From Spirochaetia bacterium (GTDB lineage Bacteria; Spirochaetota; Spirochaetia; UBA9216), in the NCBI GenBank assembly GCA_963677925.2, contig CAXXYH010000003.1, forward strand, positions 320,001 to 384,000: a stretch of DNA of 64,000 nucleotides. The letters are read 5' to 3'. How positions within the stretch are numbered: the first letter of the stretch is position 1; the number at the start of each line of letters is the position of its first letter. Under the pieces are notes generated by a model. The model did not search any database and was not told where the DNA came from. It worked only from the letters and a program-made list of their open reading frames with translations. A program made the position numbers and the translations under genes. Below, one piece after another: positions 36,589 through 46,279 of this stretch.

Positions 36589-37911
36589 CTACAGCAGGTT
36601 CTCATCTACCCAGGTAGCAACCTTATCAAGGATATCAAAGGCTTCCTGAAGTTCAGCTTCTGTAATAATAAGAGGTGGTGAAACTGCAACCATATTTTCA
36701 TGTGAATATGTTACAAAACCGTTTTCTCTTAATTTACCAAGTATCTGTTTCATAAGACCTTTAGGATCTTTTGCATAAGGAACAAGCGGTCCATTGTTTT
36801 TATCAACAAACTCAACCATACCGAAAAGGCCGATATTTCTGCAGGGACCGACTGACGGATGCTTAGCCTGAAGTTCTGCCATCATCTTAGCCATCACAGG
36901 CCCCATCTTTTTGGAATTGTTAATTAGATCAAGTTCTTTGTAAACTTCAATTGTAGCAATACCGGCTGCACATCCAAGAAGGTGTGCGCTGTATGTAAGA
37001 CCGCAGTAGAGAACATTATCTTCAAAATGTTCAGCAATCGCTTTAGAAACTATTGCACCGCCGATTGGAGCATAACCGCATGTAACACCCTTTGCAAAAG
37101 TTACGATATCCGGCTTAACATCCCAGTTCATGAATGCAAACCATTCCCCGGTTCTTCCCCAGCCTGCCATAACTTCATCACAGACCATCATAATACCGTA
37201 TTTATCGCAAAGTGCTCTGACACCTTCAAGGTAACCCTTCGGCGGAATGAGAACACCGTTAGAACCAACTACAGTCTCAAGGAAAATAGCGGCAACATTG
37301 TTTTCGCCTTCCCAGATAATCTGTTCTTCAAGCTTTGCAAGACAGTATTTTGAATACTCTTCTTCGCTGCCGAATTTAATTACCGGTTCTCTTTCAATAT
37401 ACGGATTAAAGAATTTTACAAAACCGGCTATACCAGGTTCTGAAGGAAATCTTCTTGGTTCACCTGTAAGGTTTGCTGCACCATAGGTTGCACCGTGGTA
37501 TGATCGGTAACCGCTGAAAATCTTCTGCTTACCGGTAACCATTCTTGCAATCTTGATTGCATTCTCGTTTGCTTCCGCACCTGCGTTTGTAAAGAAGATT
37601 TTTCCCATAAAAGGAACAATTTCTTCAATGATTTTTCTTGCAAGTTCAGATCTTACATCAACTGCGTAAGCAGGTCCGATAAACGGCATTTTTTCAGCCT
37701 GGTCCTGAATAGCCTTGATGATCTTCTTGTTTCCATGACCAACGTTCATGTTAACAAGCTGAGATGACATATCATAGTATTTTTTACCATCTGCATCCCA
37801 GAAAAAGATTCCTTCCGCCTTATCAACCACTATTGGATTTAGTGCTTTCTGAGAACTCCATGAATGTAAATTGTATTTCTTATCTAGAGCCCTTATCTCT
37901 TCACCAGCCAT
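36589..37911 (-). CDS. Class III (omega-amino acid) PLP aminotransferase; putative beta-alanine or taurine aminotransferase
   Basis: LHSWSSQ, DMSSQLVNMNVGH, GAEANENAIK, SYHGAT, DEVMAGWGRTG, DIVTFAKG, GLTYSAH. Confidence 0.9.
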   Translation of the reverse strand: MAGEEIRALDKKYNLHSWSSQKALNPIVVDKAEGIFFWDADGKKYYDMSSQLVNMNVGHGNKKIIKAIQDQAEKMPFIGPAYAVDVRSELARKIIEEIVPFMGKIFFTNAGAEANENAIKIARMVTGKQKIFSGYRSYHGATYGAANLTGEPRRFPSEPGIAGFVKFFNPYIEREPVIKFGSEEEYSKYCLAKLEEQIIWEGENNVAAIFLETVVGSNGVLIPPKGYLEGVRALCDKYGIMMVCDEVMAGWGRTGEWFAFMNWDVKPDIVTFAKGVTCGYAPIGGAIVSKAIAEHFEDNVLYCGLTYSAHLLGCAAGIATIEVYKELDLINNSKKMGPVMAKMMAELQAKHPSVGPCRNIGLFGMVEFVDKNNGPLVPYAKDPKGLMKQILGKLRENGFVTYSHENMVAVSPPLIITEAELQEAFDILDKVATWVDENLL

Positions 37912-38029
37912 GCTTTACCCTCCATAGCTAAAGTTAAATATTGGTTAACCGGTAATTACTCCGGTAAATTAATTACAATCGCTGTACCACAGCTTTTGAA
38001 AAAAATCAATATTCTGATACAATATCCGC

Positions 38030-38215
38030 ATGAATAACGATGATAAAACATGCGACTACTGTGAAGCCCTTCAAGGTGACAGCTGCCAACTAGGTTATAA
38101 GCTGGAACCTCTTTATTTTTCAATCTGCTACCGGACTGATGGTTACAAACCGGAAACCGATTGCCCAGGGCCGTTTAAAAAAGGCGGCGAAAAAAATTTC
38201 CGCCGCCCTGAATAA
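38030..38215 (+). CDS. Small Cys-rich hypothetical protein (61 aa)
   Basis: CDYC..C.LGY..C..P.TDCP.P; TTGAAA-N16-TACAAT with extended -10 TG immediately upstream. Confidence 0.5.
   Translation: MNNDDKTCDYCEALQGDSCQLGYKLEPLYFSICYRTDGYKPETDCPGPFKKGGEKNFRRPE
38177..38208 (-). terminator. Terminator downstream of the aldehyde dehydrogenase
   Basis: aaaaa-ggcggcg-N-cgccgcc (U-tail on minus). Confidence 0.6.
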
Positions 38216-38228
38216 TCATTCAAAAGGC

Positions 38229-44618: not shown

Positions 44619-44623
44619 GAGTT

Positions 44624-45100
44624 ATGAGCAAGAATATTAAGTTTGAATATGAAGGAACCCTTTACGACATAAACGTAACAAGAAACGGAAATGTCCTTAC
44701 AATTGAGCATGAAGGCGATAGTTACCTTGTAAGCCTTGCAACCCCTGCAGGAGCAACAGCAGCTCCTGTAGCAGCGCCCGCTGCGCCTGCAGCTCCTGCT
44801 GCACCGGCAGCGCCTGCACCGGCAGCTGTAGCACCCTCTCCCGCAGCCGCCGCGCCGGCACCAGCCGCCGCCCCTGTAGCAGCCGGAGCCGGAACCGAGA
44901 AGGCTGCAATAACAGGAACAATCAAGGAAATCAAGGTAGCCCAGGGCGCAAGCGTAGCCAAGGGAGATCTTCTTCTGATAATGGAAGCAATGAAGATGGA
45001 CATTGAAGTATTTGCAAGCAACGCCGGTACAGTAAACGCCATCCATGTAACTCCGGGTACAAACGTAACCGAAGGACAGCCGCTTGTAGACATCGGCTAA
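44624..45100 (+). CDS. mmdC: Biotin carboxyl carrier subunit
   Basis: Ala/Pro-rich linker, EAMKM biotinylation motif. Confidence 0.92.
   Translation: MSKNIKFEYEGTLYDINVTRNGNVLTIEHEGDSYLVSLATPAGATAAPVAAPAAPAAPAAPAAPAPAAVAPSPAAAAPAPAAAPVAAGAGTEKAAITGTIKEIKVAQGASVAKGDLLLIMEAMKMDIEVFASNAGTVNAIHVTPGTNVTEGQPLVDIG
44742..44890 (+). repeat. Low-complexity (Ala-Ala-Pro)n linker coding repeat
   Basis: Repeated gcagcgcc/gcaccggca units encoding APAAPAAPAAP. Confidence 0.7.
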
Positions 45101-45109
45101 CGGAGGGAT

Positions 45110-46279
45110 TTGGTGAATTTCGTAGATCTAATATTAAGATTTCTAAGCAGCACCGCCTTCACGGCAATCACCTGGCAGAACCTGGTAATGATTGCAATCG
45201 GCTGTCTGCTTGTTTACCTTGCAATAGCAAAGGGTTATGAGCCGCTGCTGCTTATCCCGATAGGATTCGGAGCAATACTGGTAAACCTTCCGCTTACAGG
45301 GCTTTTGGAAGGACCAATCGGAGACCAGGCCGGCGGACTTATATATTACTTTTATCAGGGTGTTCAGCTTGGACTGTTCCCGCCGATTATCTTCATGGGA
45401 ATCGGAGCGATGACGGACTTCGGACCGCTTCTGGGCAAGCCTCAGACCTTCCTTCTTGGAGCAGCTGCACAGCTTGGTATATTTATAACCCTGCTTGGAG
45501 CAAAGGCACTTGGAGCAATACCCTTTCTTGCAGCGCATGATCTGGGCTTCAACTTTGCAGAGGCCTCTTCCATCGCAATAATCGGAGGGGCTGACGGTCC
45601 TACAGCTATATATCTCACATCAAAGCTTGCACCGCATCTGCTTGGACCTATTGCAGTAGCAGCCTATACGTATATGGCGCTTGTACCGATTATACAGCCG
45701 CCTATTATCAAGGCTCTTACAACCAAGAAGGAGAGACTTATCAGGATGGAGGATCCGAAGCCTGTTTCAAAACGGACCAAGATTCTTTTCCCGATAATCA
45801 CAACAATAGTTACAGCCCTGCTTATTCCTGCATCTGCACCGCTAATCGGAATGCTAATGCTTGGAAACCTTTTCAAGGAATGCGGAGTTGTAGACAGGCT
45901 TTCAAAGACAGCCCAGAACGAGCTTATCAACATAGTAACGATATTCCTTGGAATATCAGTAGGCTCAAAGATGTCAGCCGACCACTTCCTTACATTTGAG
46001 ACGATATTCATTATAGTCCTCGGATGTATAGCATTCGGAGTAGGAACCGGCGGCGGAGTTATGCTTGGAAAGCTGATGAGCAAGATAAGCGGCGGAAAGA
46101 TCAATCCGATGATCGGAGCCGCGGGAGTATCTGCTGTACCGATGGCTGCGCGGGTAGTACAGAAGGTCGGCCAGAAAGAAGATCCGGGCAACTTCCTGCT
46201 TATGAACGCAATGGGCCCCAACGTAGCCGGAGTTATAGGCTCTGCAATTGCTGCGGGTGTTCTATTGTCGCTTAATTAG
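45110..46279 (+). CDS. mmdB: Na+-translocating decarboxylase beta subunit
   Basis: [53 protein letters not shown]. Confidence 0.95.

Follow-up and report, generated by a model that had tools for sequence, protein, structure and literature searches.

The locus occupies positions 29763–46279 of the 64-kb stretch of Spirochaetia DNA that was analysed (the window), and its features are listed below in window coordinates.

29763–31061, + strand: preT, NAD-dependent dihydropyrimidine dehydrogenase subunit (Pfam PF14691, Fer4_20, 110 bits; PF07992, pyridine-nucleotide oxidoreductase, 124 bits)
31064–32371, + strand: preA, dihydropyrimidine dehydrogenase catalytic subunit (NF006183 PreA, 598.4 bits, cut-off 335)
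32475–33395, − strand: IS1595-family transposase-like gene (NF033547, 83 bits, cut-off 75)
33649–35196, + strand: Na+/solute symporter of the SSS family (TIGR00813, 215 bits, cut-off 184)
35261–35746, + strand: conserved 161-aa protein (no Pfam or NCBIfam match; only unnamed clusters in the Atlas)
35756–36538, + strand: conserved TPR-like protein of 260 aa (weak TPR_14 match)
36589–37911, − strand: class-III (omega) aminotransferase (PF00202, 292 bits; PRK06062, 529.9 bits, cut-off 472)
38229–39638, − strand: CoA-acylating ALDH (SauS model NF047625, 553.6 bits, below the cut-off of 600)
39639–40021, no strand: divergent intergenic region between the ALDH-aminotransferase unit and NCS2 (from ORF coordinates)
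40022–41545, + strand: NCS2 nucleobase:cation symporter (PF00860, 248 bits; NCS2_1 above cut-off)
41610–41990, + strand: small predicted membrane protein (no family match; hydrophobic N-terminal stretches)
41994–42434, + strand: small protein with an N-terminal hydrophobic segment (weak STM3941-family match, 22.7 bits, cut-off 40; unnamed Atlas clusters)
42666–44216, + strand: mmdA, carboxyltransferase, alpha subunit (PF01039, 632.8 bits; TIGR01117, 781.3 bits, cut-off 998.8)
44232–44618, + strand: mmdD, small membrane anchor, OAD_gamma/MmdD-like (PF04277, 26 bits, cut-off 27; TIGR01195, 31.4 bits, cut-off 36.05)
44624–45100, + strand: mmdC, biotin carboxyl carrier (PF00364, 59.6 bits; Ala/Pro-rich linker; AMKM biotinylation motif)
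45110–46279, + strand: mmdB, carboxybiotin decarboxylase/Na+ pump, beta subunit (TIGR01109, 520.4 bits, cut-off 190.6; PF03977, 539 bits)
42687–46334, + strand: duplicated segment (second copy at G000:C3:1249620–1253267 on the opposite strand; blastn 99.013% over 3648 nt)

Open reading frames and Pfam and NCBIfam matches bear out the gene content of the original prediction, namely an aminotransferase, a CoA-acylating ALDH, a divergent NCS2 permease and an mmdADCB operon, with preTA 4 kb further upstream. A terminator-like hairpin (32445–32469) lies past preA. The SSS symporter, for which the PutP and PanF models both score below cut-off, is a candidate carrier of beta-alanine or of a pathway intermediate. 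The ALDH/NCS2 intergenic region contains a promoter-like site (39776–39805, + strand) and no Rfam families were found in it. The NCS2 protein falls below cut-off for the xanthine and uracil equivalogs and is proposed to import uracil and thymine; each of the two small ORFs that follow it is present in 15 of 18 NCS2 loci. Because a terminator-like hairpin lies after NCS2 and a 231-bp gap precedes mmdA, mmd may form a separate transcription unit in this genome. Other Spirochaete genomes have these genes in the same order, with protein identities of 64–90%, so the arrangement is not a product of chance.

As predicted, the ALDH is of the SauS/SucD rather than the MmsA type: its best NCBIfam model is SauS, just under cut-off, followed by AdhE N-terminal and EutE types, and no MmsA-type model occurs among the 25 matches listed. 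The closest solved structure is SucD (8CEI), an acetylating succinate-semialdehyde dehydrogenase (328 bits), and JGI labels many of the homologues 'sulfoacetaldehyde dehydrogenase'. Eighty orthologues form a single clade on a long stem (100% SH-aLRT), apart from the three paralogues in the genome and with the gene contexts interleaved, in a tree that comes from a quick rather than a careful search and was built without the two characterised SauS enzymes, so that true SauS may fall within the clade or next to it. We propose that the ALDH is a malonate-semialdehyde (MSA) dehydrogenase producing malonyl-CoA without decarboxylation, and that the class-III aminotransferase is a beta-alanine (and 3-aminoisobutyrate):2-oxoglutarate aminotransferase.

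The nearest solved relative of the aminotransferase is by far 6JIX, a characterised taurine:2-oxoglutarate aminotransferase (full-length match, 477 bits; next 247 bits), which counts against the beta-alanine route. Together with the SauS score and the JGI names, this would fit a taurine or hypotaurine route, in which a Toa-type aminotransferase and a true SauS convert sulfoacetaldehyde to sulfoacetyl-CoA for nitrogen assimilation or ATP formation and the nearby decarboxylase is functionally unrelated. We consider such a route improbable. Pfam and NCBIfam profiles found no sulfoacetate-CoA ligase, Xsc, sulfoacetaldehyde reductase or taurine transporter in the window, the genome (99.63% complete) contains no Xsc above cut-off and no dsrA, and no sulfonate-cleaving gene lies near any ALDH locus whose neighbours were annotated. 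In nine Spirochaete loci a different aminotransferase (43–46% identical) stands beside the ALDH at the same position, which suggests that the ALDH-decarboxylase core, rather than a Toa, is the constant element. Sulfoacetyl-CoA has no carboxyl group, so that a taurine route fails to explain mmdA beside the ALDH, and it leaves the preTA and inositol contexts described below equally unexplained. Sulfonates do resemble carboxylates, and BwSauCD is described in PMC10413351 as partly active on malonate. The SauS enzymes of Cupriavidus necator and Bilophila wadsworthia, as presented in the same source, share with the ALDH the subfamily, the length, the best-scoring model and the interconversion of CoA thioester and aldehyde on isosteric substrates (sulfonate for carboxylate), and act in the reductive direction in sulfoacetate degradation. 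Unlike them, the ALDH scores below the SauS cut-off, is not accompanied by sulfoacetate ligase, Xsc or IseG genes and lies beside pyrimidine, inositol and carboxyltransferase genes.

The second copy of mmd immediately follows genes for a family-III CoA-transferase and the malonate transporter MadLM (MadL, 127.8 bits, cut-off 113.45; MadM, 307.7 bits, cut-off 236.3), and the order CoA-transferase-madL-madM-mmdA recurs in another genus (G003). The two mmdA genes are 99.03% identical, MmdD, MmdC and MmdB are the same in both copies, and the flanks are unrelated. Since the 36 nucleotide differences between the segments alter a single residue (V396I) past the first six mmdA codons, the same constraint acts on both copies. 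The parts of the pump are complete, with a beta subunit above cut-off and a biotin carrier with its AMKM motif. Comparison with the PDB places mmdA in the PccB/12S family, membership of which cannot tell malonyl-CoA from methylmalonyl-CoA. The absence of methylmalonyl-CoA mutase and epimerase, originally noted for the window, holds for the whole genome: there is no match to MM_CoA_mutase, and the best epimerase match, at 44.9 bits, stays below the cut-off of 114.95, which leaves no source of methylmalonyl-CoA from succinate. The mutase is also absent from all six other genomes of the family examined. The malonate-operon twin and these absences speak against a role of mmd in succinate or propionate metabolism and in favour of malonyl-CoA; mmdA is a proposed malonyl-CoA:biotin carboxyltransferase, and malonyl-CoA is most likely what the MmdADCB pump decarboxylates. 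The twin would handle malonyl-CoA from imported malonate.

The same absences bear on a route from GABA or another omega-amino acid, in which succinate semialdehyde would be converted to succinyl-CoA by a SucD-like ALDH and mmd would decarboxylate the methylmalonyl-CoA derived from it. GABA is a frequent substrate of class-III aminotransferases and the nearest solved structure to the ALDH belongs to a succinate-semialdehyde dehydrogenase, but nothing joins succinyl-CoA to methylmalonyl-CoA in this genome, and a better candidate lies at C3:465–468 kb, where a GABA-type aminotransferase (PRK06918, 483.8 bits, below the cut-off of 676) adjoins a paralogous acylating ALDH from outside the clade under a sigma-54 regulator. 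We regard the GABA route as very unlikely. The sulfoacetaldehyde and GABA alternatives of the original prediction are thus weakened, although 6JIX, SauS and 8CEI remain the nearest matches.

In its subunit set (carboxyltransferase, small anchor, biotin carrier and OAD_beta pump) and general mechanism the complex is like MmdABCDE of Veillonella parvula and Propionigenium modestum (EC 7.2.4.3), as outlined in PMC8085960. It differs in that its alpha subunit is under the mmdA model cut-off (781 vs 999), the succinate-propionate enzymes mutase and epimerase are missing from the genome, its twin is tied to malonate uptake and its proposed main substrate is malonyl-CoA. The family-III CoA-transferase and CoA-ester carboxyltransferase resemble the malonyl-CoA route that Dehning and Schink reportedly described in 1994 in Sporomusa malonica. 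The Malonomonas rubra pump (EC 7.2.4.4), in the account of PMC8085960, likewise passes the carboxyl group of a malonyl thioester to biotin with Na+ export and is accompanied by MadLM, here found in the twin operon; in M. rubra, however, activation of malonate takes place on a dedicated acyl-carrier protein, and the twin operon showed no Mad ACP genes.

Conserved linkage was assessed at the 80 ALDH-orthologue loci (57–100% identity; Spirochaetota, Bacillota and Thermoplasmatota) by counting neighbours within 10 kb. An mmdA-like gene was present in 37 of the 80, an aminotransferase in 31, NCS2 in 18, preT and preA in 15 each, the SSS symporter in 11, the 161-aa protein in 10 and the TPR-like protein in 9. 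A membrane Na+ pump subunit accompanied mmdA in 14 loci. With overlapping ORFs removed, the ALDH and mmdA-like genes were immediate same-strand neighbours in 18 loci, and 60 of the 80 had at least one Pyd, aminotransferase, mmdA, iol or transaldolase context, the Pyd category taking in weak dihydropyrimidinase-like matches of 25–33% identity. The remaining 20 had none of these contexts; five of them were shorter than 8 kb, and none of eight annotated neighbour proteins, from five of the 20, was sulfonate-related. At the level of whole genomes, an OAD_beta pump was found in all 31 sampled Spirochaetia genomes with an ALDH orthologue vs 81 of 120 without one, a weak support for the route because OAD_beta is widespread across the class (112 of 151) and the genomes are kin. 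The mutase was absent from 22 of the 31.

This linkage also bears on whether mmd is a partner at all. The aminotransferase and ALDH could make malonyl-CoA from beta-alanine for fatty-acid synthesis or other handling, or in a variant the ALDH could run reductively and supply beta-alanine for CoA synthesis, while mmd serves imported malonate or another acyl-CoA. The terminator-like site after NCS2, a possible separate promoter region before mmdA, the sharp bounds of the operon as a cassette and the malonate-specific context of its twin would all suit this, and synthetic supply of malonyl-CoA from beta-alanine works in engineered hosts according to PMC12799670. It nevertheless appears unlikely, given the ALDH-mmdA linkage across several phyla, often directly adjacent and in part with a Na+ pump subunit, the catabolic nature of the contexts (permeases, preTA, iol, ABC transporters), and the fact that no neighbour of the pair was seen to be biosynthetic.

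The contexts themselves are of two kinds. Compact operons combine CN-hydrolase, aminotransferase, preT, preA and ALDH, in some cases also dihydropyrimidinase, three archaeal loci included, and a Bacillota locus holds a compact pyrimidine operon with ALDH and an NCS1 permease. In eight iol-type loci the ALDH lies among IolC, an IolJ-type aldolase, IolB, IolD (973.5 bits, cut-off 715) and IolE, with an mmdA-like partner in three of the eight. MSA is common to pyrimidine and inositol catabolism, and these settings support two independent MSA-producing contexts for the ALDH. It holds the place of IolA in the iol-type loci and would take MSA released by the IolJ aldolase, but belongs to a different subfamily from IolA/MmsA and is probably non-decarboxylating. 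The genome studied has two IolD genes above cut-off, and no MmsA/IolA-type enzyme was found in it (best 323.5 bits, cut-off 448.5). The original view of an extension of pyrimidine catabolism is supported but in this respect too narrow: ALDH and decarboxylase together look more like an all-purpose sink for MSA, probably including that derived from inositol.

Comparative genomics, through the twin operon, the pyrimidine and iol contexts and the ALDH-mmdA adjacency, thus supports the predicted route from beta-alanine through malonyl-CoA to a Na+ pump, and we put at roughly 0.7 the probability that the cluster serves energy-conserving disposal of MSA through malonyl-CoA and Na+-exporting decarboxylation. 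All substrates, the cofactor, the direction in which the ALDH works, the Na+ coupling and co-regulation are here predicted from genes and their context. Uracil, and probably thymine, would enter through NCS2 and be reduced by PreTA. Ring opening by dihydropyrimidinase and CN-hydrolase would yield beta-alanine or 3-aminoisobutyrate; that these steps are absent from the preTA-mmd cluster counts against the route. Elsewhere the genome encodes two dihydropyrimidinases above cut-off, one within a purine-type cluster, and a CN-hydrolase that reaches the cut-off of no named model and is the orthologue, at 80.6% identity, of the CN-hydrolase that is cluster-linked at other loci. The aminotransferase would then form (methyl)malonate semialdehyde, which the ALDH, with CoA and NAD(P)+, would convert to (methyl)malonyl-CoA with the carboxyl group retained. 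MmsA/IolA loses CO2 in the same step as it oxidises the semialdehyde. Biotin-dependent, membrane-bound MmdADCB would instead transfer the carboxyl group to biotin and decarboxylate it with Na+ export, leaving acetyl-CoA (or propionyl-CoA) for substrate-level ATP formation. ALDH and mmd would probably be a natural, energy-conserving replacement for MmsA/IolA and, if so, would save decarboxylation energy that the textbook enzyme for MSA wastes.

A literature search found no published precedent for such a replacement. The MSDH of Zhu 2020 is said to be of the MmsA type, decarboxylating while acylating. The extended reductive Pyd pathway of Bacillus and Lysinibacillus, as summarised in PMC7332683 (citing Yin 2019 and Zhu 2020), runs similarly from uracil through dihydrouracil, N-carbamoyl-beta-alanine and beta-alanine to MSA with acetyl-CoA as end product, and its PydD beta-alanine aminotransferase and final dehydrogenase (MSDH) or PydE, which reduces MSA to 3-hydroxypropionate, are clustered with PydA-type genes. 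Unlike in that pathway, the dehydrogenase here is of the SauS/SucD/AdhE-N type and is linked to a separate membrane biotin decarboxylase, by which the energy of decarboxylation could be conserved. The engineered NCM pathway (2024; reviewed in PMC12799670) shares both reactions from beta-alanine through 3-oxopropanoate to malonyl-CoA, for a biosynthetic purpose and with an unrelated reductase domain in that account, whereas the route proposed here would be natural and catabolic, use another enzyme family and end in decarboxylation.

The IS1595-like gene between preA and the SSS symporter is present in one copy in this genome by tblastn. Six related loci (L024, L025, L026, L028, L030 and L031) have orthologues of it (34–88% identity) at the corresponding place.

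Gene order was taken from an ORF listing together with Pfam and NCBIfam family scans of the window, and the genes named in the original prediction proved correct in every particular. The window corresponds to C3:320001-384000 of the genome (G000, 5.04 Mb in four contigs), which is 99.63% complete.

Genes of the cluster (window positions, strand, product)
29763-31061, +, preT, with PreT domains
31064-32371, +, preA (PreA model 598.4 bits, cut-off 335)
32475-33395, -, IS1595-like gene
33649-35196, +, SSS Na+/solute symporter
35261-35746 (unk161) and 35756-36538, +, two conserved uncharacterised proteins
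36589-37911, -, class-III aminotransferase
38229-39638, -, CoA-acylating ALDH of SauS/SucD/AdhE-N type (SauS model 553.6 bits, cut-off 600)
40022-41545, +, NCS2 permease, divergent from the ALDH
41610-41990 and 41994-42434 (unk146), +, two small membrane-type ORFs
42666-46279, +, mmdA, mmdD, mmdC and mmdB

The ALDH had been assigned to the SauS/SucD type and not to the MmsA type, and this assignment stands. Its best model is SauS (NF047625), whose cut-off is reached neither by the window ALDH nor by any other protein of the genome, and it is not among the matches to TIGR01722 (MmsA/IolA), for which the best score in the genome is 323.5 bits against a cut-off of 448.5. Among solved structures a succinate-semialdehyde dehydrogenase (8CEI) comes closest, and database homologues are called 'sulfoacetaldehyde dehydrogenase' by one source. 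Since the substrate of the ALDH is not decided by its sequence alone, the gene contexts of its relatives were compared.

The strongest rival to a beta-alanine route has the aminotransferase acting on taurine and the SauS-like ALDH acting on sulfoacetaldehyde. Full-length alignment of the aminotransferase with the taurine:2-oxoglutarate aminotransferase of Bifidobacterium (6JIX, 477 bits) speaks for it, as does the SauS-like character of the ALDH. According to excerpts of PMC10413351, SauS enzymes were characterised on sulfoacetyl-CoA and sulfoacetaldehyde and occur in gene clusters together with SauT or SauCD as sulfoacetate-CoA ligase and with Xsc or IseG for desulfonation; the window ALDH scores below the cut-off for SauS, and no such ligase, Xsc, isethionate lyase (IseG) or taurine transporter is present in the window or among annotated neighbours at the other loci. 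The genome as a whole lacks dsrA and an Xsc above cut-off, and sulfoacetyl-CoA would leave the carboxyltransferase encoded by the neighboring operon nothing to work on. Seven glycyl-radical enzymes of about 800 residues (loci L111-L117) are encoded in the genome, all distant from the cluster.

The MmdADCB proteins have all the parts expected of a Na+-translocating biotin decarboxylase, with the small anchor just under cut-off, and are predicted to export Na+. The membrane beta subunit MmdB scores 520.4 bits with TIGR01109 (cut-off 190.6) and 539 bits with PF03977, the carboxyltransferase MmdA 632.8 bits with PF01039, and the biotin carrier MmdC, which contains the AMKM biotinyl-lysine motif, 59.6 bits with PF00364. 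MmdD falls slightly short with both PF04277 (26 bits, cut-off 27) and TIGR01195 (31.4 bits, cut-off 36.05), but fits in size, position and hydrophobic N-terminus. The operon shares its beta, carboxyltransferase and biotin carrier components with known Mmd systems (EC 7.2.4.3), but its alpha subunit does not reach the curated mmdA equivalog score (TIGR01117, 781.3 bits against 998.8) and the mutase and epimerase partners of those systems are missing. In Streptomyces PccB, a single Asp/Ile position sets the preference for acetyl- or propionyl-CoA. The absence of methylmalonyl-CoA mutase and epimerase, originally noted for the window, extends to the whole genome, where PF01642 has no match and the best epimerase score is 44.9 bits against a cut-off of 114.95. 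The classical succinate-to-propionate role is therefore unavailable to this decarboxylase.

The missing mutase also bears on the alternative that the cluster converts GABA by way of succinate semialdehyde, since the step from succinyl-CoA to methylmalonyl-CoA would be blocked. The closest solved ALDH structure has this specificity, but the genome contains a separate pair, a GABA-type aminotransferase and a paralogue of the acylating ALDH, under sigma-54-type regulation, and this pair together with the missing mutase weakens the GABA reading. The second pair lies at G000:C3:465425-468125 (L123:8422-11161), where the neighbors are a LarA-type racemase, an aldehyde:ferredoxin oxidoreductase, a TRAP binding protein and a PrdR-like sigma-54 regulator.

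A blastn search of the window against the genome revealed a second copy of positions 42687-46334, exactly the mmdADCB operon, at a distance of about 890 kb on this contig; the copies are 99.0% identical and their flanks are unrelated. Of 3648 nucleotides 36 are different, and outside the first six codons of mmdA the only residue change is V396I, the D, C and B proteins being identical; both copies are therefore under the same constraint. The second copy (G000:C3:1249620-1255803 with the preceding genes; L003:10676-16804) comes immediately after genes for a family-III CoA-transferase and the malonate transporter subunits MadL and MadM, which both score above their equivalog cut-offs, and the order CoA-transferase, madL, madM, mmdA recurs in G003, a genome from a different genus of the family (locus L128). 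Its gene content suggests that the twin operon serves to import malonate, convert it to malonyl-CoA by CoA transfer and decarboxylate the product, which makes the set a candidate for malonate fermentation via malonyl-CoA and not by the ACP-bound Malonomonas system.

For the comparison of contexts one genome was taken per species; of 220 matches to the search pattern, 192 encoded a relative of the ALDH, and the best 80 of these (57-100% identity) were kept. Within 10 kb of the ALDH in these best 80 of 192 relatives, an mmdA-like carboxyltransferase is found at 37 loci, an aminotransferase at 31, NCS2 at 18, preT and preA at 15 each, mmdB at 14 and an SSS symporter at 11. At least one counted context is present at 60 of the 80 loci once overlapping ORFs are removed, and of the 20 loci with none, five are shorter than 8 kb. 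Both small ORFs at 41610-42434 have hydrophobic N-termini and travel with NCS2 at 15 of the 18 NCS2 loci, whether mmd is nearby or not; neither could be placed in a family.

Gene maps and annotation of the recurring neighbors define four settings of the ALDH. The first is the window's own arrangement, present in more than a dozen Spirochaete genomes and often with a CN-hydrolase between NCS2 and the ALDH. The second, a compact pyrimidine operon of CN-hydrolase, aminotransferase, preT, preA and ALDH to which dihydropyrimidinase is added in some cases, occurs in other Spirochaetota, at three archaeal (Thermoplasmatota-type) loci (L039, L043 and L044) and at one Bacillota locus that also carries an NCS1 nucleobase permease and a sigma-54 regulator. 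In the third setting, an mmdA-like gene directly follows the ALDH on the same strand (17 of the best 80 loci, with the reverse order in one more), and in the fourth, found in clostridial and related iol clusters, the ALDH lies among IolC, an IolJ-type aldolase, IolB, IolD (973.5 bits, cut-off 715) and IolE. The place occupied by the ALDH in these iol clusters normally belongs to IolA; iol-type loci are found in Vallitalea maricola, Marinisporobacter balticus and Petroclostridium sp. X23, among others. Malonate semialdehyde (MSA) is the intermediate shared by inositol catabolism and, via beta-alanine, pyrimidine reduction. An adjoining carboxyltransferase would have a sensible role only with an ALDH that retains the carboxyl group and so forms malonyl-CoA. 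At nine Spirochaete loci the place beside the ALDH is taken by another aminotransferase (43-46% identical), and because the aminotransferase can be swapped in this way, the ALDH and the decarboxylase appear to form the constant core.

In a quick maximum-likelihood tree the best 80 of the 192 ALDHs form one clade (100% SH-aLRT) on a long stem, apart from the genome's three paralogues, and the gene contexts are interleaved across it, as expected if the clade has one function. The three archaeal ALDHs are nested among those of Spirochaetes, a placement suggesting that the pathway was transferred between domains.

The conserved linkage of the ALDH with mmd contradicts the view that mmd is a functionally unrelated neighbor. 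A terminator-like site past NCS2 and a 231-bp gap agree with that view, and the operon may be transcribed alone in this genome. The possibility that mmd, being a 99% duplicate, is a recent chance neighbor was also considered and rejected, as the order mmd-NCS2-ALDH is common to relatives at 64-90% identity.

The dihydropyrimidine dehydrogenase step is present as PreT and PreA, and candidates for the remaining steps of pyrimidine degradation are encoded elsewhere in the genome: two dihydropyrimidinases exceed the TIGR02033 cut-off of 393 bits (571 and 516 bits), both encoded outside the cluster, one 30 kb upstream of the window and the other 52 kb beyond it. A CN-hydrolase on another contig (PF00795, 213.8 bits; no named equivalog at cut-off), a candidate for the beta-ureidopropionase step, is 80.6% identical to the cluster-internal CN-hydrolase of 17 related loci. 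Two IolD genes above cut-off are also present, and because an MmsA/IolA-type enzyme is absent, the window ALDH is the only evident outlet for MSA from either source. Co-occurrence, proposed earlier as a check, was compared in 151 sampled genomes of the class. An orthologue of the ALDH (E at most 1e-150) is found in 31 of them, and the OAD_beta pump occurs in 31 of these 31 versus 81 of the 120 others, which is weak support given the relatedness of the genomes and the wide occurrence of this pump family. Mutase is absent from 22 of the 31.

We infer the substrates, cofactor and ion coupling of the route as follows. Uracil or thymine would be imported by NCS2 and then reduced by PreTA, and the ring would be opened by dihydropyrimidinase and CN-hydrolase. 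The resulting beta-alanine or 3-aminoisobutyrate would lose its amino group by transamination, probably with 2-oxoglutarate as acceptor by analogy with the closest relative of the aminotransferase, and the aldehyde would be oxidized with CoA to (methyl)malonyl-CoA. MmdA would then pass the carboxyl group to the biotin of MmdC, and MmdB would decarboxylate carboxybiotin with export of Na+. ATP could be obtained from acetyl-CoA, and the gradient could be used by the two Na+-type symporters of the cluster. On genomic evidence, namely the twin operon, the missing mutase and the conserved contexts of the ALDH, the interpretation first offered for the cluster is supported, and we put the probability of an acylating MSA dehydrogenase acting with a Na+-pumping malonyl-CoA decarboxylase at roughly 70%. 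The system is rated as a new combination, in at least three phyla, of known enzyme families that would alter the energetics of a common catabolic step. We place at slightly better than even odds the wider proposal that a widespread module of anaerobes replaces MmsA/IolA with a non-decarboxylating MSA dehydrogenase of the SauS/SucD family and a Na+-pumping biotin-dependent malonyl-CoA decarboxylase, so that the last C-C cleavage in uracil, beta-alanine, inositol and malonate catabolism yields sodium-motive force.

A natural route of this kind was not found in the full-text literature, a coverage that leaves out most subscription journals, so precedent may exist. In Bacillales the Pyd pathway is extended by a beta-alanine aminotransferase and either malonic semialdehyde reductase or MSDH, as described in part of PMC7332683, and PMC3543383 has the decarboxylating 3-oxopropanoate dehydrogenase only. 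The conversion of beta-alanine through 3-oxopropanoate to malonyl-CoA appears in sections of PMC12799670 as a designed synthetic pathway with the same pair of reactions, but there with an unrelated reductase domain. The substrates of Na+-translocating decarboxylases listed in portions of PMC8085960 are oxaloacetate, methylmalonyl-CoA, glutaconyl-CoA and malonate as malonyl-ACP; the energies of these reactions are about -34 to -44 kJ/mol.

If the proposed route is correct, malonyl-CoA would join this short list, and strict anaerobes would gain extra energy from very poor substrates, given that the textbook MmsA/IolA step wastes a decarboxylation energy of the order of 35-45 kJ/mol, judged from the figures for related enzymes in the same portions of PMC8085960. 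Pyrimidine and inositol clusters without IolA/MmsA in many anaerobe genomes would be explained, and the widespread automatic annotations 'sulfoacetaldehyde dehydrogenase' for the ALDHs of this clade and 'methylmalonyl-CoA decarboxylase' or 'propionyl-CoA carboxylase' for the carboxyltransferase would need correcting. There would be a natural enzyme for making malonyl-CoA from beta-alanine, now engineered from a reversed malonyl-CoA reductase domain, and a physiological oxidative role for a reaction so far described chiefly in CO2-fixation cycles and one synthetic pathway. The CoA-transferase, MadLM and decarboxylase would be candidate genes for malonate fermentation via malonyl-CoA.

Several loci show further neighbors. 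A transaldolase-like gene (family c27) adjoins the ALDH at L090, L085, L067-L069, L092, L101, L056 and L063; at L090 (Petroclostridium sp. X23, about 9900-17400) it lies amid iolB, iolD, iolE and iolG-like genes, and neither iolC kinase nor iolJ aldolase was found in that locus, which may point to a transaldolase-based form of inositol catabolism that would release MSA without ATP cost. Immediately upstream of the ALDH at L058, L092 and L101 is a transketolase split into two ORFs; IolM- and IolO-like genes, both below cut-off, are present at L092, and L092 and L101 have an ABC-transporter-like gene set in common. Another sugar-acid route may feed the ALDH and mmdA pair at these three loci. Upstream of the window by 22-30 kb (G000:C3:289566-298000, locus L021), a dihydropyrimidinase/hydantoinase lies by an XdhA-like molybdoenzyme and an SsnA-like aminohydrolase in what looks like a cluster of the anaerobic purine-degradation type.

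Within the window, unk146 and unk161 matched only unnamed clusters in searches of Pfam, NCBIfam and a protein atlas. The IS1595-family transposase-like gene has one copy in the genome, and its position between preA and the SSS symporter is kept at six related loci (L024-L026, L028, L030 and L031; 34-88% identity), so it looks retained and possibly domesticated more than an active insertion sequence. Two tRNA genes (47252-47325 and 47366-47437, both +) lie just past the LysM/M23 gene that follows mmdB, and the duplicated segment ends at 46334, short of both. The Rfam search gave no family for the cluster or its immediate surroundings; a molybdenum-cofactor riboswitch (RF01055, 64.6 bits, gathering score 36) lies at 23877-24055 on the minus strand.
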